From the IMG/VR virus record IMGVR_UViG_3300006213_000002, positions 62,001 to 126,000 of that record: a stretch of DNA of 64,000 nt, one strand, 5' to 3'. Shown piece by piece: positions 3,697 to 55,886 of the stretch. The notes beneath the pieces were generated by a model that saw nothing but the letters and a program-made list of their open reading frames with translations, was not told the origin of the DNA and searched no databases. Position 1 is the stretch's first letter. Each line of letters opens with the position of its first letter. This stretch comes from an uncultured virus (IMG/VR IMGVR_UViG_3300006213_000002). Lineage: Duplodnaviria > Heunggongvirae > Uroviricota > Caudoviricetes. A program made the position numbers and the translations under genes.

Positions 3697-3797
3697 TGCG
3701 TATTCCTCCTTTTATTTGGCAATGTTTATTTTGTTAATCACCTTGTATCATATATAAAAAGTTTTTATTACATGATACAAATAAAGAATATATCATT

Positions 3798-5194
3798 TTA
3801 TTCTATATCTTCAATTATATCATCTGGATTTAATGTATATAATGTTACTACACTGACATGCTTTGCTTTCAATGCCAAATTTAAATCAGCATGTGAAATT
3901 TGTATACCAAATAATCCAGCATATTCAATATCCAACATATAGAATAGTCTACCTGCACACTTCTCACATATACATTCATCTTTGCATGACATAGGTGATC
4001 TCATTTTAACTGTTTTACCTACATATTTATTTATATTATCTTTGGTTAATAATACAAGACTATCACCTTCTGCAATATATGTATATAATACATTATCTTT
4101 ATTCTTTTTAGTAATTTTTAATGGTATAAGATTTTTAGTACCGCAGTCTGTTCCTTCTGCTGCACATCTCATCATCTGTAATAATGCCAAAATCTTCTTT
4201 CCAAGATATCCAGCATCAGCAGTACCAATAGATGCTGGGAATTGAGATGCTAATATACTATTAGCATGTGCAGGTATATCATGTACATCTATACCATCCA
4301 TAAATGATGTACCAATGAAATCATATTCATTAGTAATTTTATTTAATACTGCACCTTTGATAATAGAATTATTTTTATAATTATTAGCAAAATCAAGATC
4401 ACCTGATAAATATAAATCCATACCAGGATCATCTTTTAATAATTCTTTTGCATAATCAATTAATTCTTTACTAATATTAGTCATAACATCTACATTACCA
4501 CTAGCTAATTCTTTTTCATATTTTTTAATTAATTCTTTCTTTTTAGCTGTTATCTCTGGTAAGGGACTTAACATTTTTTCTGATAATGTATGTGCTAACA
4601 TTCCATTCAACCAATAACCAAGATTATCTCGTCTATCTACATAAGCATTAAATTCTTTTTTACCTATTTTATTCTCTTGCCATAATTGAGCAATCAAATT
4701 ATCAAGATCACCTAGTTTACCCTTATTTATAACTTCATTGATATAATGAGTTAAAGATATAACTCCTGATCCTTCTAATAAGAATTTATTCATAACGAAT
4801 CTACCTATAGTAGTATCAATCTTTGGTTGATTATTATAGAAATAATTTGCAGGTACTACAAATTTATCCCATGTATTATGTTTGCATTTAATTTTCTTAG
4901 TAGAATTACCATTAGTACAATCCACTCTATCAGCAAACATTTTTGTTAGAAAAGATAAAGTAAAATTATCTGGATTCATATTTATATAAGTTAAATGATC
5001 TGATTCATTTACTAACTTAGCTTCTTTTCCATCTTTAGTTAATTCATAGAAAGAGTTAAATACCTCTTTAGCTGTTACTTTAGCATTAGTACCTGTTATA
5101 GCTAAACAACTCATTTTAGTACCCATAATCATTTCTGCTTCAGCATTAGCTTCATCAGAATATATACCTCTTTCTGATACCTGATCTCCATCAA
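3798..5194 (-). CDS. rpoC: RNA polymerase beta'-like subunit, exon 2
   Basis: Starts TT GAT GGA GAT CAG (..F D G D Q); bridge helix TADAGYLGKK, DCGT, RSPMSC..CEKC zinc site, trigger-loop-like ALKAKH; spliced CDS 2808 nt = 935 aa. Confidence 0.9.
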
Positions 5195-5216
5195 CATATA
5201 CAAGAAACTTTTTTAT

Positions 5217-5228
5217 TTATATATTATA
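5217..5228 (+). promoter_or_regulatory. intron-internal promoter motif upstream of the antisense endonuclease
   Basis: TTATATATTATA, the same motif found upstream of many non-structural genes in this window. Confidence 0.55.
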
Positions 5229-5303
5229 TTTATCGAGCATATACAGTATAATAAGTGAAGAGATAGTCTACCAGTTGCTTGTGAAAAGAAAAGGAGACTA
5301 ACT

Positions 5304-6170
5304 ATGAAAGAAGATATTATAAAACAAAACCGTGAAATGTTAAAATTATTTATTAACAATAGACCTATAGCAAAAGATTATCAAATTGATAGAAATCATT
5401 TTGGTCTACCATTTGGATACATATATTGTATTGAAAACCTTAAAAATCATAAAAAATATATAGGTTCTACTTATTCTAATTGGACAGGTGTTCCTGAAAC
5501 AAATACTATTGTTCAATTAAGAAAAAGAGCATCTGACTATCTTTATGAATATAATATGATTATGAAAAATAAAAATTTAACCACAGCAAGTAGATTTAAT
5601 AGACCTATTATTCAAGCTATGGTAGCTGAAGGCTTTAATAACTTTATTATGTATCCAATGGCTGAAACAACAAAATTTGATCATAATGAAAAAGAAAAAT
5701 ATTTCATTAACTTCTTTGATACTATTAAAAATGGATATAATATAGTAAGAGGAGGAGCATCCAATAATAGAATTGGAACAAAGTTAATGGCTAGAGATAA
5801 ACTCCTCAGATCTGAAGGTGTTATATGTATCCATGTTAATAATAAAAAGATATTATTTTCTGATTCTATGAAACTCTTTGGAGACTATATGAATAGCTCT
5901 AAAGATATGATCAAAAACTCTGTACGCAAAGGTAGACCTTACAAAGGTTGGTTTATATTTTATATTAATCCTGATAAAAGAGCTTATATCCTAAATAAAA
6001 ATGTATTAGGAGATGGATTGCCTGTAGGTGACCGCCATTCAGATAAATCTAAACAGTTTTATCAGGAATTATATACTACTGTAAATTTATATTTAATGGA
6101 TAATGCTAAATCAGATCAATTTCCAGGATTTGAATTATTACCACCATTAGAATATAAAGATGAAAAATAA
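5304..6170 (+). CDS. GIY-YIG homing endonuclease, antisense to the host intron
   Basis: GYIYCIENLKNHKKYIGST, EKYFINFFDTIKNGYN; AAAGGAG RBS. Confidence 0.9.
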   Translation: MKEDIIKQNREMLKLFINNRPIAKDYQIDRNHFGLPFGYIYCIENLKNHKKYIGSTYSNWTGVPETNTIVQLRKRASDYLYEYNMIMKNKNLTTASRFNRPIIQAMVAEGFNNFIMYPMAETTKFDHNEKEKYFINFFDTIKNGYNIVRGGASNNRIGTKLMARDKLLRSEGVICIHVNNKKILFSDSMKLFGDYMNSSKDMIKNSVRKGRPYKGWFIFYINPDKRAYILNKNVLGDGLPVGDRHSDKSKQFYQELYTTVNLYLMDNAKSDQFPGFELLPPLEYKDEK

Positions 6171-6545
6171 TAAATAAAAAAGTTAATTGAAATTGGACTA
6201 TCTCTTCACCCAAAGAAATATAAAAATAAAATTCTATGGAGAGTGGCACTTCGAAATACAGCATTCCACCATATTCCTACATAACTAGTCTCTACACTTG
6301 TTCCTCGATATCATATCGATTCTTTAGCACGGTATTAAAATCTATCCTATTATATAGGAAATCATTATCTCTTATGAAGCGTATTCGACTGTTTAAATTA
6401 GATATATCGGGCTATTATATATCCCAGCTTATTTAACTTCTACCGTTAGCAATAATAAAATCATATTATCACACCGCTTGTTAAGCGTTCACCACTTTAT
6501 TCTTGTAGAATATTACTATTCTAGCCGACCCCAATTTTGAAATCA

Positions 6546-7956
6546 AATCGGCACCCATACCATCCAGATGTGCATTTGCCATAACCAATGTATCTATAAA
6601 TTGAATGCCCACCTTGTCTTCTTCTGTATTAAAATTAATATCAGGATAAAAAGGATACTCTTTTCCATTAAATATCAATTTAATATGTCTACGTGTTGAT
6701 GATACTCTTATCTTATTAAAATAAATACCCTTGTCTGTACCAACTGGGTATCTGCTAACCATAATATGACGTTTTTCACATACATCAACACATGCTAAAT
6801 ATAATAGATCCGTTACAGTCATTGCTCTATTTAGAACTGTACTTGCATTATTAGGTAATATCACTTTACCTTTCAATATCACAGAGCATTTCTTTACTAT
6901 AGAGCCTTTTTGTAATGGAATTTCAACATCAACAATTAATTTTTTAAATCTATTATCTGGATTTAAAATATAATCATTAATAATCTTTTTAATATTTTTT
7001 TCAGAAAATTGAGCTTCAGCATCTTTTATACTACCTACTACTTCTCTATTCGTTTCTTGATCATAGAAAACTATTGCATTTGGATCATTAATAATTTCTC
7101 TTTGAAAGAAATTAGTTAACCATGCTTCAATAAATGGATAGAATAATGAACAACAATGTGATATTGGTACTGCTGAATGATCCATATCTACCATACTATC
7201 TTCTAATCGCTCATTATTATAATTATTAGATGATATAACTGCTCTAGTACCATAATCAACTGATTTACCCAATAGATTCTTTCTAATCAAACCATGTTTT
7301 TTTGATATTTGATTTTTGAAATAATCTATTATTTCTACTAATGTTTCTTGTACTTTATATTGAGTAGAATATTGTCTATATGCAAATATTCCTCCCTCTG
7401 ATAATAATGCTACTGATCGTAATAATTTTAAATATAAATCATTTAATTCATTTACATGATCACTATTATCAATTGTACCTGCAATAGTTACATCACGATA
7501 TGCAGGAGGACATACTAACATTTTATCAATAAAAACATCATCTCTTTTTAATGTCTTCATTAATTCTTTATTAACTTGATTGGCTGATTTACTTTTACTC
7601 CAATCAATTTCATCCCAATGTTCATATAATTTGTCTATACCTGTCCATCCTGTTTCATCTTCAACCATTATGCCATCGCGTATAATAAATTTTCTTTGAC
7701 CTGAAATACAATATGTGATATTACGTTGCATTCGTTTAATTACTTTATCATATAAATGAGGATGAATAAAATGACGTTTTAATGTAATATATGCAAATGT
7801 ACTTCGTCTATCACTTTTAGATTGACCAAATATATCATGTGATAATAATCCACCTGGCTCAAATGTCATCTTATTTGAAAACAATCGCACAGACGTTACT
7901 TCACGTAATTTATTAACATCAATTAATGTATCAATATCTAATAAATCAATTTTCAT
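6546..7956 (-). CDS. rpoC: RNA polymerase beta'-like subunit, exon 1
   Basis: GLLSHDIFG, FAYITL, CPPAYRD, KHGLIRKNLLGKSVDY, SRYP; ends ...GMGAD at the intron. Confidence 0.9.
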
Positions 7957-8074
7957 TATATTTATCTCCTTTCTTTAATAAACTTTATAATCACTGTAAC
8001 TAAATAAGAGCAATATAAGATAGGACCATATGGTCCTATCTTATATCACATGAATTGAGAGTTGTGAGCATATA

Positions 8075-24500: not shown

Positions 24501-26765
24501 ATCAGAATAATCATAATCATCCATTATTTTTACTATATAATCAAAATAAGATGGTATCCATGTTTTATTAAGATACATTTCATAATTAGTAATTCTTTTA
24601 TATCCTAAAAATTTTTCATTGATACTTTCTTCTAATTTAGATATAGCATCATCAAAAGGAAATTCATAATGTTCACTTTTTAAATATGTAGCTATACCTA
24701 ATTTGAAATATGGATCCATTGTTTCTAAAAATAATTTGTTAAATCTTTCATATGAAGGATTATCAATTATATACTCTATAATTTGCCATCTAGTATTCGT
24801 TGTTAATAATCCTTTATATATAGATTTTATTCCCATCCAATAGAATTTTTCCATAAAAATATCTCTATAAACTGATACTTGATCAAAATGATATTCTTCT
24901 ATATCGTTATCCCATATAGGAGATGATTCTATAATATCTCTATATTGATCTAATACATTCATAGTATCATTATAAAAGAAAAATGATTTAAAAATTCTAT
25001 TCAGAGTAGGTTCTTTTTCTTTTCCATCTCTGAGTAAATATACATCAGGAAAATGATTTTCTACTATCAAAGGTGATGGTCTCCATACTTTATCATCAGG
25101 GAAATATTCAAATGTCCAAAAATCGCTATTTTCTATAGGTCTTTGAAATCTAACTTTATCTTTATAAAAATCTTTTTCTTCCCATAATACTTTTTTACTC
25201 ATAGAATGAATAATATTTACCATATAATAGCTATCAGCTAGTTCTCTAGGTATAAATATACATGGTGATATCATGAACCAAAAATCAGATTTACCATCTA
25301 CTATATTATCAGTAGGAAATCTATCTAATAAATCACTTGAGCTTCCTTCATTTCTTAATTGATCCATAGCTATTATAAATCTTTTATAGAATTTTTCATA
25401 TTCTTGATCATATTCTATCAATAATACATCTAATAAATCATGATCAGCTTGATGTATTTTTTCCATTATATCTAATAATTTATCAATATAATCATTAAAT
25501 CTATTATCTGCTATATTATCCTCTAATAAATAGAATCTAAATTCTTCTATTATATCAGCACCTTTAATAGTTAAATCTCTAAGATTATTTATATAATCTA
25601 CTAAGGATTCATATGGTTCTTCAAATTCTACAAAAGCATCTGATAATACTATGGGTCTAATAATTTTAGTCCATCCATCAAACTTTTCTTTCATGTGACC
25701 ATTAATATCAACATAAACTTGTTTATTAGTATCATTCTTATTAATTTTTGCATGTTGTACTATATAATTTTTCATTGTTGATACTGGTTGAAAATTAGGT
25801 TGATATGGTCTATATATAACATCTGTAGGTAATAATACTGGATATTCATGAAAGTATTTAGGTACCATTATAGACATCCATAAATATTCTTTCGCTTCTG
25901 AATTAATAATTTTTTTATTAAAATCACTAATAGAATTTAAATTAATATATCCATCCTTTATATTTAAAAATTCTAAATTATCGCCTAATGCATCTATATA
26001 TTCTGCATTATCATTTCTTTCATTAATATCAGCAATTCTATTAATAGCTACCATAATTTTATCAACATTAGTAATTCTACTATCATTAATATAATTTATA
26101 GGTAACAACCAATTCCATTGATTATTACATAATTCTCTACTAATTTTTATTCTACATGAAAAATTAGTATCGAATTTATAGATATAAACAGGATAATTAT
26201 TTTTTACCCAATGATCGTAATAATCAAATCTTATAGTAACTTCATGATCATCTATTCGTAATAAATATTCTGAATATATTCTTTTATTAATAAATAATAA
26301 ACATGCAAATTTGAATATATCCCAATTATTTAGTATATCCTGAATATCTATCCATTTTCTATAAAACTGTGATAATTTAAATTTATCACGTTGAGATGGT
26401 GGTATAAATTGATCTATAGGAATCACAAAATCACATATATTTACATTTTCTAATAGATTTAAATCTTTCATTCTACCATTCCATTGATAAAAATTACAAC
26501 TATCATGATTACTTGCTTTTAGTTTATGACTATTATTCAAATAAATATCTTTTAAAGTATTTCTTAATGCTTCTTCATTAAAAGAATTATTCAATACAGC
26601 TTCATTTCTAAATATAGATGATCTACTACCATCTTTATCAGGTATATGATATCCTTGTTCTATAATATCATTTGTATTGAATAATTGAGTAGCAGTAGAA
26701 GTATATTTATCAAATGCTTCACTATACCATTTTGGATCAAATGGACTCCATCTGTCTCTATCCAT
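18549..26765 (-). CDS. very large putative virion structural protein (2738 aa)
   Basis: Long ORF, helical middle region, three related segments (SGGFKHQEGD, SGIGYRVGD, PGAGYAVGQ) of a kind common in tail/baseplate proteins; function inferred. Confidence 0.6.
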   Translation of the reverse strand: MDRDRWSPFDPKWYSEAFDKYTSTATQLFNTNDIIEQGYHIPDKDGSRSSIFRNEAVLNNSFNEEALRNTLKDIYLNNSHKLKASNHDSCNFYQWNGRMKDLNLLENVNICDFVIPIDQFIPPSQRDKFKLSQFYRKWIDIQDILNNWDIFKFACLLFINKRIYSEYLLRIDDHEVTIRFDYYDHWVKNNYPVYIYKFDTNFSCRIKISRELCNNQWNWLLPINYINDSRITNVDKIMVAINRIADINERNDNAEYIDALGDNLEFLNIKDGYINLNSISDFNKKIINSEAKEYLWMSIMVPKYFHEYPVLLPTDVIYRPYQPNFQPVSTMKNYIVQHAKINKNDTNKQVYVDINGHMKEKFDGWTKIIRPIVLSDAFVEFEEPYESLVDYINNLRDLTIKGADIIEEFRFYLLEDNIADNRFNDYIDKLLDIMEKIHQADHDLLDVLLIEYDQEYEKFYKRFIIAMDQLRNEGSSSDLLDRFPTDNIVDGKSDFWFMISPCIFIPRELADSYYMVNIIHSMSKKVLWEEKDFYKDKVRFQRPIENSDFWTFEYFPDDKVWRPSPLIVENHFPDVYLLRDGKEKEPTLNRIFKSFFFYNDTMNVLDQYRDIIESSPIWDNDIEEYHFDQVSVYRDIFMEKFYWMGIKSIYKGLLTTNTRWQIIEYIIDNPSYERFNKLFLETMDPYFKLGIATYLKSEHYEFPFDDAISKLEESINEKFLGYKRITNYEMYLNKTWIPSYFDYIVKIMDDYDYSDRWIKRPRSTFDIKRFLPILQQTQIDIKNELREINLIIKWILEMLDRESYNLNISNITDLKEYVSIMENNMKEVIDNTANLDLDIYSIDDINIIIRLLSLHKTLTDAINGMQMNIYNDTIEKKVYIQKRMDIENIVTSIIELKLHIDHMSDIIQTFDMEKFMKVTNDLETYFVYNKVNLNDKSLLGHINQFNDPWSVDVKEKRNKLFQSTAILYGNFDSEKSYTYEEIDEFLTSLDNVMTDTIEFKDSINNFYEKFDYEVDKTVIDRLDQISYMLYNDFIVIIERYKGYREELLECINTIETLLSELEKYNISDTEKSYLSTILADLSKIIYALSYIAGINNAKDANNAYDDIQNNISKWMEFINTEESVFLSIIDFTNPENKYLINIEEINKTLTVLMEYMDSVNIEYKPDIQCPTYSDIYEIDKIEMVSGGFKHQEGDYVFIKNLGTYQIDSIENNICIASSISEVNYRTTSFRDPCWQQYIYDSITSGDGMGIMIKAISSKHTVIINDEIVDQIIMSIKNGLYLIRKNLKSYNSYNNNTFEHDLKTLSDIETKWSNILDDFGTHISNNSKQYVDQLIQPLSGLIESCNRFMERRNHITIGELLSQINEFIKDIYKYANNNDLVNKDFIYYSDKFKLIRNKLSEFYGNGTTWENGKKLSDILTEVNLGIVFYKENVLDIFEINPDIENFIDEFNNIIKFISFIKSEIISIPSTISTMIDPTIERLEKNIKNKPELQKDKWYMFHKAGIAESGIGYRVGDIVEIIPQLPTDKNGNEIHDMEDIILNDVILLQVMKVEYGEVVEVEPMMNYAIPYLIWGIRETITRVGIGNGLKIDAYSYEIGIGDMTYFNPLKADILTLPQFNENDLFMYKFENIHDLNIKYDVFLGGNQITNYIHRHFTIDELAENHMQPRGIDAIYINANQLMELQKSKLDITNSHSFIYRLDRLDVKDPGAGYAVGQNIYVDVGEFAIKLRVTELDGTPFKGIKEVALINENINIDESTDCNEAKVINDTLNNIDDEFHNCKYDLLPQEGITKPATSSFANITITTKRYTDTESGDRNEKFLYPDVSIPGPTDKTTYGDSDEGWYQGSRIDNSVSNTKDERVWNGIQNVIPPSDNIISDEKRLPPNQPLKGEYQSIVRQRIHNSEGETNNLTNKKYHNGSILNSAMTKGDITVATYNDIPKHINDYPGIKVGKVVIVLTDETNNSHRTLYTVRTFSPNGYIVYDLPEICDMSWNHFLVDWMNIDCYQDYPTMKAQYPSADWRAENTYMNIENSILEGRVIGTSMPKIMNNTSYIKDITVNDISVFNWTKHEWEDLHSEKWELIVTEDIDNKIFNFKLFYYEEGIYSYDMELFLNKTPETLKKNAVLKKDAIFSIKTTIVGEVNKQAIDTLVHTGRHLRIRKLFPYEQTESYTIGFDRNGEFLGYEMDFKIANYMHFKNELHLEDIKVYNRTAGRYEDILDRSLFEVRFKDDKSETQGWETNTRILQSLIGKSGANFHDGPVWCYNSEYDVTVFGIVTADYKKDGHIITFKPIHFINAPEENIALEFNVFQKDFQTEVQMAIIVIEFITEKVEVFGDGYIHNVINPLAPLPKEFKIISQLDLNRPFEYDIILDKTPKRYTFIEPKWLMNPTFHIKNENVPQDRVYILTEKGRFPLINPSTNKPTLHVVNTQNGTDVTFMNLYRRYEHMNICVTPYPMRSVYVKRRIPSHGFINLKGKLNKPLNKKYFEFWVNGKLLHDEVTIITPTKLILHGLKSLKNFEIIEINRDSNEYFSDNFYEVETSTYGRPYYGWDYDTYLDAALECRLGKDNYTEEEQEYLLSPIWKQVSEDHPEFKNYPPNVDIEDDVLLRTNPEDYPINDLENPSYQFLVINQPTLEGKAIVEQTLTFRHFGYIPITNQMLIDIMNEVWGDEINDNPYFPEHTVLTNDDWYGLSTRLYDEYGVLVHILNNAAYHVTGRSMLKINTKNKISRIIPNPVIYDLT

Positions 26766-52198: not shown

Positions 52199-53758
52199 AT
52201 GGCAAAATATCAAGATGATGTATATGACCATTTAAAATCTGATATTGATAAAATTAGAGTAAGATTTAGGCAATATATATCATATTCAAATGAACAAGGA
52301 GCAAAGTCTGTAGTAGACGAGATAATTTATAATGCTCTTGATGAATGTAAGAATCCAAGATCTCCAGGTGATACTATTCATATTGTAATGGATGATAGAG
52401 ATGGATTTATTACTGTGACAGATAATGGTAGAGGTATACCTACTAATTTATTAGAGGAATTATTTACATCATTAAATATGGGATCTAATATTAATACATC
52501 AAATAAATCAGATTTAAAAGTAGAAATATTGGGTCAAAATGGTACTGGAACACTTGCTATATGTGGTTTAGCAGAACATGTAGAGATTACTTCATATAGA
52601 GGTGGTACAGAAAATATTAGTAAGACATTAATATTTGAAGAAGGAAAAAAGATCCATGAAGAAGAGCATAAATGTGATAAAAATAAACATGGATTATGTA
52701 TTAAATATAAACCTTCTAAAGTCATGGGTAAAAATACTAAAATAGTTTGGGATCCAGTCCATAAAGGATTATTAGATTTACAGTATTTAAATCATAATAG
52801 AATAAAGATAGATTCTGTTCATTATGATAAAAATGGAGATTATACTGAAGAGAAATATAAGATCTTAAATTTTGATGATATTTTATTACGTAATGATCCT
52901 GAGTCAATTACAAGTAGTAAAATATTGATCAATATTAAAGATGATAATATATTAGAAGAATTTGAAGATATGTCTGTAAAAAGATTTTTAGATATGGATA
53001 TAGCATTTGCATATGTAAATAAGTTAAATCCATATATAGATAGTTTTTCAAATTCAAACAATACGGTTGATAATGGCGATCATTTAGATGGTGCATTGGA
53101 AGCTATTTGTAGATATTTTCAATTAGCAACAAAGAATATGCTATCAGAGAAAGAAAAAGAATCTCTTGATATCAAATGGGATGATGTTAAAACAGGATTA
53201 TCTATAGTAGTATCTTTACGTACTGATTATGAAAGATTATATACTGGACAGACTAAACATAAAGTTGTTAATGGAGATATTAGAAAGATTATAATTAATC
53301 TTACAATAGAGGCGTTAACATCATATTTTAGTAAGAATAATAGTCAGTTAAAAGAATTATGCATGATAGTAAAGATGAATGCAAAAGTACGTCGAGAAGG
53401 TGATAAAGTACGTACAGCAGTAATCAAAAATACAATAACTAATTGGTCATCATACAAGATGAAAAATTATGATCCGTGTACAAGAAAAGGAGTTAAGGAA
53501 TATAAAGAAATATTTATTATTGAGGGAGATAGTGCAAAAGGTAGTTTAAAGAATGCTAGATTTCCTGAATTTCAAGCACTATTTAGTATACGTGGCGTTA
53601 GCTTGAATGTTTTCAAAGCAACTATAGATCAAATATTTGGTCCTAAAGGTAATAAAGAATTTACTGATTTAGTAACTATATTAGGATGTAATGTAGGACC
53701 TAAATTCGATTTAAGTAAACTTCAGTTTAGTAAGATTATTATAGCATCAGATGCGGAT
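52199..53758 (+). CDS. gyrB: DNA gyrase/topoisomerase II subunit B, exon 1
   Basis: EIIYNALDE, DNGRGIP, GQNGTG, GQTK, EGDSAKG; ends IIASDAD. Confidence 0.9.
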
Positions 53759-54965
53759 AAATTATCTATGTCCGCTTAAAATTCTTTTAATTGCTGGGAG
53801 TTCTTGTTAAGTTAATTCAACCGCGGTATTATAGTAATATAATATGCAGCATATATCATAATGGATATAGGATGGTAAAATCGAATTAAATAGAGATAAT
53901 CAGCAAATAATTATATTGATTCTAATTTTAATTATAAATTACTAAAGAAAGGAGGTATATAATAATATGAAATATAATAAATCTATGTTAAATAATGCAT
54001 ATAATGATTTATTACAAGAAAAAGATATTAGATCTATGGAATTATTTGATAAACATTATTGTGAATTATCAATAGCAGAAATAGATAAATTAGAAAAATA
54101 TATGTATGATTTATCTAATCCTATATGGAAACCTATAATGATAGATGGTAAAGATAGTGGATATAAGATTAGTAATATAGGTACAGCAGTTGATTCAAAT
54201 AATAATGAATTAAAATATTATCAAAATTCATCTGGTTATTTAGTTATCTGGATTCATATAAAAGGTAAACGTAATAATGTACCTAAATCTATTCATAGAT
54301 TAGTAGCAGAATCATTTATTCCTAATCCTGATAATAAATCAGAAGTGAATCATATTAATTGCAAACAAAATATGAATTGGGTTGGAAATCTTGAATGGGT
54401 AACGCATGAAGAAAATATACGATATATGATAAATTGTGGTAATCAAGTTATAGGAATGAATCATAAAAACTCTAAGTTTACTGATGAACAAATACATTTA
54501 GTTTGTAAAATGCTTGAAAATCCTAATAATGATATTAAAACTATTTCAGAAAAAACTAAAGTATCACTTAGAACTATTCAAAATATAAGATTTTATAATG
54601 GGTGGAATCATATAAGTGGATTATATAATATAAATAGATCTAAGTATGTTAAAGGTCCTAAATTTAGTTATGTTTCTAAAATAATATCCGATATGGTTAA
54701 TAACGGAAAAACAAATTCTGAAATACGAAATAAATTGCATGAATTAGGTTTAGATTTAAATATAACAAGTAAGAGTATTAGTGATAGAATATATCATATA
54801 CGAAAATTAGAATCAAATAAAACTTCATCGACTATCGAAAAGCTATGATATAGGATTATTAACCATATCAATATAGTTAGTAGAGTATACTTATAATAGT
54901 AGAAATGAAGGACATTATGAAGATATAGTCACAACATTTATAGAAATATAAAGATAAGATAATTG
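53759..54965 (+). mobile_element. group I intron (1207 nt) in the GyrB TOPRIM motif
   Basis: P1 GCGGAU/GUCCGC with U.G; P10 AUCUAU/GUGGAU; AATTGCTGGGA 53789-53799, AATCAGCA 53898-53905, TTCATCGACTA 54824-54834, GAAGATATAGTC 54919-54930; terminal G. Confidence 0.92.
53967..54848 (+). CDS. intron-encoded NUMOD4-HNH homing endonuclease
   Basis: WKPI...YKISNIG (NUMOD4-like); IHRLVAESFIPNPDNKSEVNHI...NLEWVTHEENI; AAGGAGG RBS. Confidence 0.9.
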   Translation: MKYNKSMLNNAYNDLLQEKDIRSMELFDKHYCELSIAEIDKLEKYMYDLSNPIWKPIMIDGKDSGYKISNIGTAVDSNNNELKYYQNSSGYLVIWIHIKGKRNNVPKSIHRLVAESFIPNPDNKSEVNHINCKQNMNWVGNLEWVTHEENIRYMINCGNQVIGMNHKNSKFTDEQIHLVCKMLENPNNDIKTISEKTKVSLRTIQNIRFYNGWNHISGLYNINRSKYVKGPKFSYVSKIISDMVNNGKTNSEIRNKLHELGLDLNITSKSISDRIYHIRKLESNKTSSTIEKL

Positions 54966-55886
54966 GTGGATGGATTATTTATTAGAAGTCTACTTATGGC
55001 ATTCTTCTTTAGAGTATTACCAGAAATTATTTTGGATGGTAGATTATATATAGCAGAACCACCTCTATATAGAGTTGATAATCCAAAAGATCCATTTGTA
55101 ATTAATAAAGAAGATTATAACAATCGATATGTAAAAGAGTGTATGAAATATTATCAGATAGGATATCCTATTATAGATAATGGAGTAATAGTTGACGTTA
55201 ATATTTTAAATAAAAATGATATTAAAGAATTATTATCTGATACATCATCTTATGTTAAAGACATAGAATTATTAGCTAATCATTATAGGATTAATGAAAG
55301 ATTATTTGAGATAATAATTGAAGAAGTAGCATTAATGAATATCGATGTCAATTTATGTGCAGATATACAGAAGGATATTATTGATAAAATCAATATACAA
55401 CATCTTGTGACAAGAATACAAGCAGAATTTCCAGAAGTATATTATGATGACAAATTTAAGTTAATACGAGGATCAATAAATACTGTTAGACAATTAATTG
55501 AATTATCACCTAACATAATTAAGAAGTCTAAAGTAATAATTAATTATATTATAAAATGGAAAACTGCACAGACTAAATTAGTATTAAGAGATAATAAAAC
55601 AAAAGCAGAAAGATTATTATCATTATTAGAATTATTAAAAGTTTTAAGAAAATATCAACCTGATATCAAGCATCGTTTTAAAGGTTTAGGCGAGAATGAT
55701 ACAGATGATATACGAAAGACTATTATGGATCCTAATACTAGATCACTTATAAAAGTAAATATAAGTGATATAGAAAATGATGAAAAAATCTTTCAGATGT
55801 TAAGGGGTGGAACTGCACAAAATGCATTAGATAGAAAAAATATGATGCATAATTATAGTATACCAGTCGAGTTAATTGATACGTAA
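54966..55886 (+). CDS. gyrB: DNA gyrase/topoisomerase II subunit B, exon 2
   Basis: VDGLFIRSLL, AEPPLY, RFKGLGE, MDPNTR; spliced product 826 aa. Confidence 0.9.
   Translation: MDGLFIRSLLMAFFFRVLPEIILDGRLYIAEPPLYRVDNPKDPFVINKEDYNNRYVKECMKYYQIGYPIIDNGVIVDVNILNKNDIKELLSDTSSYVKDIELLANHYRINERLFEIIIEEVALMNIDVNLCADIQKDIIDKINIQHLVTRIQAEFPEVYYDDKFKLIRGSINTVRQLIELSPNIIKKSKVIINYIIKWKTAQTKLVLRDNKTKAERLLSLLELLKVLRKYQPDIKHRFKGLGENDTDDIRKTIMDPNTRSLIKVNISDIENDEKIFQMLRGGTAQNALDRKNMMHNYSIPVELIDT

Follow-up and report, generated by a model that had tools for sequence, protein, structure and literature searches.

A group I intron at the catalytic motif of a jumbo-phage virion RNA polymerase gene with a predicted GIY-YIG homing endonuclease gene on the opposite strand

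Phage intron endonuclease genes are textbook examples of sense-nested genes, which are reconciled with splicing by hairpins over the ribosome-binding site and by internal promoters. Endonuclease introns at the catalytic aspartates of jumbo-phage RNA polymerases (RNAPs) are already known from phages AR9 and phiPA3, and antisense endonuclease genes are already known from rDNA introns of Didymium. Here, a DNA stretch of 64,000 nucleotides was analysed (hereafter, the window; bases 62001-126000 of the 135-kb IMG/VR virus record IMGVR_UViG_3300006213_000002), in which the beta' gene of the virion RNAP (vRNAP) is interrupted by a group I intron with an intact, predicted GIY-YIG homing endonuclease gene on the opposite strand. 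The AR9 homologue of the interrupted gene, g145, is an annotated vRNAP subunit gene; its intron 2, which encodes the endonuclease g146, is placed in the catalytic motif (DYD|GD), 5 nt from the site in the window. In phiPA3, the intron of the vRNAP gene gp211/209 likewise holds a homing endonuclease, gp210, and borders conserved aspartates encoded by that gene. gp210 nicks the intron-less phiKZ allele and confers a competitive advantage (PMC11620839); a first-pass annotation of the window had cited the interference of a phiPA3 intron endonuclease with co-infecting phiKZ, and the precedent holds as cited.

The source phage was an AR9-like jumbo phage of the gut, and the stretch occurred in 20 public runs from 10 studies, mostly labelled as mouse gut metagenome; no RNA run was among those listed, and one run (X3) that had been taken for RNA behaved as DNA. 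The interrupted gene and its intron are as follows.

6546..7956, minus strand: exon 1 of the vRNAP beta' gene, homologue of AR9 g145 (phrog_2986, E 2.1e-72; tblastn).
6545..5195, minus strand: group I intron of 1351 nt, with the final U of the 5' exon paired with G in P1 and a terminal G at 5195 (splice sites, covariation).
3798..5194, minus strand: exon 2, which opens TT GAT GGA GAT (phrog_2986, phrog_2962, alignment with AR9 g145 exon 3).

The minus-strand open reading frames (ORFs) 6481..7956 and 3798..5132 were recognised as parts of one gene in a PHROG profile search. The exon 1 ORF covered positions 8-483 of the 539 in PHROG 2986 (RNAP beta subunit family; E 2.1e-72), and the first 49 residues encoded after 5194 extended this match at positions 486-533 (E 0.0079). 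The remainder of the exon 2 product was beta'-middle-like and matched PHROG 2962 (E 6.6e-61). The host gene was about 30-33% identical by tblastn to the beta'-N of AR9-like jumbo phages, the relatives being Listeria phage LPJP1, Yersinia phage phiR1-37, Bacillus phage BpSp, AR9/PBS1 and Staphylococcus jumbo phages; no match was obtained when 3700-8000 of the window was compared with GenBank phages by megablast. In the window, beta'-N and the next beta' segment (PHROG 2962) share a single reading frame at 3798-5194, unlike in AR9, LPJP1 and BpSp, where the beta'-N gene stops about 55 codons past the DxDGD motif.

On the minus strand, exon 1 ended in ...GGT GCC GAT T, that is, GGTGCCGATT, at 6546, the intron ran from T6545 to a final G (complement of c5195), and exon 2 started with TTGATGGAGAT at 5194. 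The insertion point was located after the first base of the Phe codon in GAD-F-DGD, the magnesium-binding catalytic motif. The joined exons, GGTGCCGATT|TTGATGGAGAT, read GAT TTT GAT GGA GAT, which restores DFDGD within G-A-D-F-D-G-D; hence, the intron limits of 5195 and 6545 in the first-pass annotation are exact. The motif was uninterrupted, as DYDGD, in the intron-less homologues of LPJP1 and BpSp, and it was also uninterrupted in 11 of 29 related IMG/VR loci. The explanation that we hold to be probable is that a mobile-type group I intron at DFDGD of the vRNAP beta' gene loops out an antisense endonuclease cassette.

The stretch 6545..5195 was identified as a group I intron by sequence comparison with homologous introns, which settled the assignment. 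The following elements were assigned.

6524..6552, minus strand: P1, exon GCCGAUU (6552-6546) with the internal guide GGUCGGC (6530-6524) (compensatory pairs in relatives).
6506..6523, minus strand: P2 hairpin UAGAAUA-GUAA-UAUUCUA with a GNRA loop (3/7 pairs doubly changed among four sequences).
6190..6505, minus strand: ribozyme core with P3, a P4-P6-type domain, P7, a P7.1-like hairpin, P8 and J8/7 (RNAalifold, held-out sequences).
6496-6490 with 6248-6242, minus strand: P3 (RNAalifold consensus, pair counts).
6292-6286, minus strand: 5' strand of P7, GAGACUA (pair counts with the P7 pseudoknot).
About 6241-6210, minus strand: P8 (RNAalifold consensus, pair counts).
6209-6195, minus strand: J8/7 and the 3' strand of P7, GUGAAGAGAUAGUCC (aligned to the RF00028 consensus).

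Homologous introns were sought in IMG/VR with a two-paralogue endonuclease alignment, then with the conserved ribozyme block and then with exon 1, and they were found in six further contigs. The RNAalifold consensus of four introns (that of the window and those of the surveyed loci L131, L132 and L135) contained 84 pairs, 26 of which had a compensatory change. Two spurious pairs were swapped for the P7 pseudoknot, and the recount gave 84 pairs in 13 helices, with 98.5% of the cells paired and 25/84 pairs changed on both sides. None of 500 shuffles reached either 98.5% or 25 double changes, and the slid controls gave 1-6 double changes. The consensus was derived from the same alignment as the count, and therefore four unused sequences were added. 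The held-out homologues L147, L149 and L153 retained 79, 75 and 76 of the 84 pairs, respectively, and the distant, ORF-less L156 retained 56, with P1, P3, P4 and P5 intact.

The elements were arranged in the order P1, P2, P3, two extra hairpins, P4 to P6, P7, one hairpin, P3', P8 and P7'. The hairpin between P7 and P3' presumably recalls the P7.1/P7.2 insertion of subgroup IA. The 13-helix core had the P7 pseudoknot, with a bulged base beside the G-binding G-C pair, and the J8/7 consensus of a conserved group I core, and the RF00028 alignment placed GGGUGAAGAGAUAGUCC on the J8/7-P7 consensus; P7 never varied among the homologues, so its support comes from the motif. P1 of the window intron contained a U.G wobble, which was constant in the four aligned homologues while the adjacent pairs compensated each other. 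These pairs covaried with silent exon changes: GCCGAUU/GGUCGGC in the window, and GCGGAUU/GGUCCGC, GCGGAUU/GAUCCGC and GGGGACU/GGUCCCC in the relatives. The U.G rule also fitted L147, and L153 appeared to have C-G instead. Among the seven homologous vRNAP introns, the 5' exon ended in U in six, and a terminal G was present in six, the exception being L149/L141 with A. The four introns of the consensus all ended in G, and their joined exons read DFDGD or DYDGD. The GNRA loop of P2 was constant in these four, and the stem sequence was different in each. By eye, P10 could be drawn directly 5' of the guide in L132 (AUGACG/CGUCAU), and also in L135 (ACGAUGG/CCGUUGU) and L147 (AUGAC/GUCAU); it was weaker in the window (UUGA/UCAA, between UCAA in the P1 loop and the first bases of exon 2). 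Covariation thus supports the first-pass placement of a group I intron in the RNAP catalytic motif with its core on the minus strand at about 6545-6190.

The same data bear on whether splicing occurs at all. The polymerase gene could consist of two separately translated halves split by a free-standing endonuclease gene, as in nrdA/mobE of Aeromonas phage Aeh1; the endonuclease gene has its own expression signals, and an ATG (5132) lies 20 codons into exon 2. However, the break falls inside a codon of the catalytic triad, no Shine-Dalgarno sequence was seen ahead of 5132, and in AR9 the annotation of the homologous g145 joins three pieces, one intron lying 5 nt from the site in the window. Moreover, 350 nt of the flank show the 25 compensatory group I pairs, and P1, P10 and the terminal G fit an intron. 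Two unspliced halves are therefore barely credible.

The cassette within the intron includes the following two features.

5304..6170, plus strand: intact GIY-YIG homing endonuclease gene, 288 aa, as predicted (PHROG, homologues, model/Foldseek).
5290..5296, plus strand: Shine-Dalgarno sequence AAAGGAG, 7 nt ahead of the ATG (sequence).

The plus-strand ORF 5304..6170 was the sole long ORF within the intron. The longest minus-strand ORF wholly within the intron encoded 36 aa, and minus-strand ORFs of 48 and 52 aa overlapped the cassette ends. In the PHROG search, the plus-strand ORF matched homing-endonuclease families, three in number, with E-values between 2e-9 and 2.5e-8. An alignment with seven members, all intact and 284-291 aa long, showed 42-61% pairwise identity and 66 invariant columns. 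G38, I40, Y41, Y52-I53-G54, R75, E131 and N146 were invariant across the seven, and we take these residues to be equivalent to Y6, Y17, R27, E75 and N90 of I-TevI. The AlphaFold2 model had a pLDDT of 83.7, and its top three Foldseek matches in the PDB were the I-TevI catalytic domain (probability 1.00, target-normalised TM 0.72-0.78). Against GenBank phages, tblastn of the endonuclease gave one weak match, in Streptococcus phage Javan406. AAAGGAG-type words were the most enriched upstream 8-mers in the phage genome. With the PHROG matches and the AAAGGAG at 5290-5296, the earlier description of an antisense, intact gene with its own ribosome-binding site stands. The 288-aa product is, on sequence and model, a GIY-YIG homing endonuclease with predicted cleavage activity.

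Two perfect inverted repeats are associated with the cassette.

6170..6184, minus strand: 5' strand of the closing helix, AACUUUUUUAUUUAU (inverted repeat, duplex prediction).
5206..5220, minus strand: 3' strand of the closing helix, AUAAAUAAAAAAGUU, 10 nt ahead of the terminal G (inverted repeat, duplex prediction).
5255..5268, plus strand: copy of the J8/7-P7 sequence, GTGAAGAGATAGTC, in the predicted 5' untranslated region of the endonuclease gene (perfect inverted repeat of 6196-6209).

The first-pass annotation had proposed that the 15-bp repeat 5206-5220 / 6170-6184 forms a P9 stem which loops out about 950 nt. The repeat is real and perfect, and a perfect inverted repeat of at least 15 bp arose in 6 of 500 first-order Markov simulations. 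The helix joined the bases 11-25 nt past P7 to those 11-25 nt ahead of the terminal G, with a loop of 949 nt. A helix of other sequence was found at the equivalent place in all three relatives tested, 0-7 nt from the 3' splice site, and the paralogous cassette in the non-virion RNAP (nvRNAP) gene was bracketed by an analogous 27-nt repeat that was 81% complementary. In the ORF-less L156, a 6-bp P9 hairpin with a GAAA loop directly followed P7 and was itself followed by the splice site; in L149 and L153, a P9-type hairpin was retained with the cassette downstream of it. Hence, the cassette sits in the P9 region, and the proposed stem is supported by the analogous helices in the relatives and by the L156 hairpin.

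The second repeat (14 bp, 5255-5268 / 6196-6209), which was absent from the first-pass annotation, crosses the 15-bp repeat. Its arms were invariant in the four sequencing runs compared. The 14-nt copy was not seen by eye in the tails of L131, L132 and L135 or in the upstream regions of L147, L149 and L153. An IMG/VR scan with the 14-mer GTGAAGAGATAGTC returned at least 118 loci, mostly by chance.

An ORF flanked by perfect inverted repeats of 15 and 14 bp could have been misassembled, or it could belong to an invertible segment that was sampled in one of its two states, with inversion mediated by the crossing repeats and a sense form existing as well. Contigs drop rare variants, and a minor inverted form could go unseen in them. 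This explanation is nevertheless very unlikely. Over 11.4 kb of comparison, a second IMG/VR record (289 kb) was 100% identical. From three independent studies, single contigs spanned 4900-6800 in the order and orientation of the window; they differed from it at 7-9 bases and had neither indels nor joints at which the strand changes. A fourth run covered 4900-6800 in overlapping pieces of the same sequence. Six other contigs, diverged by 30-50%, had the same orientation and, by eye, lacked the 14-bp repeat. Misassembly had been named beforehand as what could overturn the observation, and with the colinear contigs of three independent studies the cassette orientation is real.

The distribution of the intron was surveyed in 29 IMG/VR loci encoding a relative of exon 1, with the following results.

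7 loci (seven distinct contigs, including this phage): intron with the antisense GIY-YIG gene.
11 loci: intron-less.
5 loci: near-identical, ORF-less homologous introns of about 330 nt, inserted one base upstream.
1 locus: ORF-less intron of about 190 nt, of another type.
1 locus: ORF-less insertion after DFDG.
2 loci: intron of about 970 nt (sense 196-aa ORF, seen in L161 only).
1 locus: insertion of about 1.8 kb with a sense 503-aa ORF.
1 locus: too diverged to read.

The GIY-YIG gene was antisense in every GIY-YIG-carrying member of this ribozyme family. The survey of orientation in homologous introns that the first-pass annotation had suggested thus gave 7 of 29 loci with an antisense GIY-YIG gene, and none of this family with a sense one. 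Exon 1 had diverged to 47-70% identity among the cassette carriers, and the cassettes were intact. Because intact copies persisted through this divergence, the nuclease is argued to be under selection, which would fit continued homing or competition of the kind described for phiPA3 gp210. The ORF-less homologue of about 330 nt belongs to phages that are more distant; it was located at L156:4598-4936 (also in L157-L160) and interrupts their vRNAP beta' gene at GAT|TAC.

A second antisense GIY-YIG gene was found outside the window in the same genome. This paralogue (284 aa, 51% identical; L129 4956-5810) is carried by the beta'-N gene of the nvRNAP, which is homologous to AR9 g270, and lies within the last intron of that gene.

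L129:4873-6553 (= G000:C1 about 24872-26552): last intron of the nvRNAP beta'-N gene, with the antisense 284-aa GIY-YIG gene.

The intron was flanked upstream by a 14-nt mini-exon, CTAAATGCAGACTT, which encodes L-N-A-D-F, and downstream by GAC GGA GAT; hence, it interrupts the same DFDGD codons. Between the two introns, only the endonuclease coding part aligned at the DNA level (68% over 607 nt), and the ribozymes were without significant similarity. The nvRNAP gene of the relative L133 was arranged likewise; its intron ended in G, and the P1 pairs were compensated. The nvRNAP intron also holds a sense, HNH-like ORF of 119 aa with a TATATATT motif. The HNH genes of the other introns examined in this genome were all sense. 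One of these had already been noted in the window, where a topoisomerase II large-subunit (gyrB-like) gene at 52199-55886 is split by an intron; its 293-aa HNH gene (53967-54848) was confirmed to be sense. That intron gave a partial RF00028 match only and has a plus-strand J8/7-P7 word at 54920.

The signals that could drive the cassette were also compared with those of AR9.

About 5216..5235, plus strand: AR9-type early-promoter-like motif, TTTATATATTAT-(6N)-C/G (motif match to the AR9 consensus).

The AR9 early promoter, AAATATATATTAT-(6N)-G, is read by the injected virion polymerase (PMC5312081). In the window, ATTTATATATTAT-(6N)-C at 5215-5234 agreed with 11 of the 13 letters of this consensus, and a start of the endonuclease transcript near 5234-5235 would follow. 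The first-pass annotation had described a 12-mer at 5217-5228 as a promoter motif used throughout the window. The 12-mer is present there; with up to one mismatch allowed, it was not enriched in the window (21 found versus 17.8 +/- 4.1 expected). What stood was the motif itself and the enrichment of its core in non-coding DNA: TATATATT occurred upstream of 23 of 119 crude gene calls; DNA not covered by these calls made up 11.4% of the genome and held 37 of the 87 occurrences, most of which preceded a start codon by 37-100 nt. When extended to TATATATT(A/C/T)T-(6N)-G/A, the core matched the AR9 early consensus. A scan for sigma-70-type promoters gave 20 sites versus 13.7 +/- 3.6 in shuffles, which is not clearly above expectation, and the same scan found no terminator-like sites. 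At 5228, the first spacer base after the motif, the window has A and all four runs compared have C, so the window allele is in the minority.

For the host gene, a hairpin, AAGATAGGACCATATGGTCCTATCTT, followed by a T-rich run was observed at 7990-8030 on the minus strand, in the interval that separates the start of the polymerase gene from its upstream neighbour. This element resembles a terminator; the vRNAP gene therefore probably has its own promoter, of which none was recognisable in the sequence. No late motif was recognisable upstream of this gene. Opposite temporal promoter classes for host gene and cassette, with an early cassette in the late gene and a late cassette in the early gene, were considered and rejected: AACA-(6N)-TA was found at the nvRNAP cassette of this phage and had no match in L133.

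Several observations weigh against the looping-out intron with its separately driven nuclease. The best RF00028 match (6175-6335, minus strand) scored 19.6 bits against a cut-off of 50 and appeared only in a 500-nt scan or a genome-level scan; an Rfam scan of 4000-8000 at E<=1 found nothing, nor did a scan of the whole window at the gathering score. None of the seven RF00028 matches in the phage genome reached the gathering cut-off. The proposed check with minus-strand covariance models accordingly gave a match at the right place and below the cut-off. The single-sequence fold was no better than shuffles (z -0.14). Most pairs were counted on the same four sequences that yielded the consensus, and the held-out test used an add-to-alignment step. 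In L141 at about 1215-1225 (same place in L149), A rather than G precedes the exon start that restores DxDGD, and the nvRNAP intron likewise has A before its only DFDGD-restoring exon start (L129:4874-4884); in-frame stops just upstream leave no alternative 3' splice site in either case. For the endonuclease, the Pfam models stayed under their cut-offs (SegE_GIY-YIG matched 7/7 homologues, GIY-YIG 3/7), the Foldseek E-values were 3e-3 to 7e-3 with none at or below 1e-3, and a sequence profile search of solved structures gave no match at E <= 0.1, what it returned being weak and unrelated. The promoter is known here as a motif match, with C at +1 where the consensus has G/A; of the seven homologous cassettes, three had a clear motif upstream, one had a weak motif and three had none. 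Furthermore, splicing could be hindered if the 14-nt J8/7-P7 copy paired with the catalytic core. A plus-strand RF00028 match at 5143-5291 (14.4 bits) was rejected: it is due to this copy, and no plus-strand core lies there.

In the intron reading, the first approximately 350 nt form the ribozyme, comprising P1, P2, P3-P8, the P7 pseudoknot and the P7.1-like hairpin. The 15-bp long-range helix closes the loop of about 950 nt and brings the terminal G and the 3' splice site beside the core. The loop carries the opposite-strand expression cassette, with the early-promoter motif, the Shine-Dalgarno sequence and the intact GIY-YIG gene. The sequences show this anatomy, the covarying RNA structure, the conserved layout and the intact endonuclease gene, whereas expression, splicing and cutting are inferred. 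The pre-mRNA would be transcribed through the cassette and self-splice, restoring DFDGD. A separate transcript from the opposite strand, made probably early and by the injected virion polymerase, would encode the endonuclease. The enzyme would then cut intron-less D(F/Y)DGD alleles of co-infecting related phages, leading to homing or interference. The intron in the pre-mRNA has no sense ORF or ribosome-binding site; hence, ribosomes could not disturb ribozyme folding, and synthesis of the nuclease would be separate.

Whether the orientation itself serves a purpose was considered next to these features. The antisense orientation may be adaptive, giving fully separate control. The first-pass annotation had gone further and taken the orientation to be what uncouples the nuclease from the RNAP gene, possibly with early expression against competitors; this is plausible but goes beyond what the sequences show. 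In AR9, the sense gene g190 has its own early promoter inside the late gene g189, as proposed for the cassette here (PMC5312081); hence, uncoupling needs no antisense layout. The promoter motif, moreover, was clear in only three of the seven cassettes. It is quite possible that the anatomy is as described and the orientation is functionless, the cassette having landed backwards in a tolerant peripheral loop, for which either strand would do, and then been inherited and copied as a unit. Cassette identity roughly tracked host-gene identity (GIY-YIG 45-61%, exon 1 47-70%), which fits one old insertion with descent. The missing motif in three of the seven cassettes and the separate early expression of a sense-oriented intron gene in AR9 point the same way. 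However, nine antisense cassettes (distinct contigs or genes) all looked intact, seven of them as called ORFs (the seventh of 291 aa) and two by full-length tblastn only, and they did so over a divergence that changed the essential exon protein by 30-50%. The equal orientation and position also recurred in an unrelated ribozyme, and the HNH genes of the genome's other examined introns were all sense.

This recurrence could also be read in a more far-reaching way. The antisense cassette would be a mobile module moved between unrelated ribozymes at the DxDGD of both RNAPs, possibly through J8/7-P7 and DGD-exon homology arms; its use as an early weapon against co-infecting relatives would explain why it stayed intact over deep divergence, and antisense transcription together with the 14-nt leader copy would time or limit the splicing of the late polymerase. 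We regard this combined proposal as unlikely.

With the looping-out intron as the preferred reading, a gut jumbo phage clade uses the opposite strand at the catalytic aspartate motif of both its RNAPs, and the nuclease stayed intact as the polymerase protein diverged by up to half. The locus thereby offers a natural setting in which to ask three things: whether separate strands are another way to reconcile translation with ribozyme folding, whether transcription of the antisense strand acts back on the splicing of an essential gene, and whether intron nucleases that persist for long are retained as weapons, as in phiPA3. It also carries a warning for annotation, in that standard models miss such introns and an opposite-strand gene between two gene halves is compatible with an intron.

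I-DirII, from the Didymium iridis intron Dir.S956-2, is a His-Cys box enzyme. As in the window, its gene is antisense to the ribozyme; it is expressed from its own promoter (PMC3679873, PMC3073962). Dir.S956-2 is, however, a eukaryotic nucleolar rDNA intron, and expression of its endonuclease gene involves a Pol II promoter together with a spliceosomal intron and poly(A). The antisense layout in Didymium solves a Pol I/Pol II problem, which phages do not have. The literature searched, subscription journals apart, contained no report of a group I intron from a phage or bacterium with its endonuclease gene antisense.

Among the phage systems, the intron endonucleases of AR9, namely g146 (Hef-like), g147, g190 (HNH) and g271 (HNH), are all sense, whereas the GIY-YIG gene here is antisense. 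phiPA3 gp210 is an HNH nickase in a chimallivirus, and the accessible text of its report makes no mention of an antisense layout (PMC11620839); the enzyme here is of the GIY-YIG type. The T4 td intron encodes I-TevI, a GIY-YIG intron endonuclease whose catalytic domain was the best structural match to the product in the window. I-TevI has its own late promoter inside the td intron and is untranslated on the pre-mRNA (PMC2988022). The I-TevI gene is sense, and in early transcripts an RNA hairpin that covers the ribosome-binding site keeps it silent, whereas in the intron described here the separation of the two strands would serve this role.

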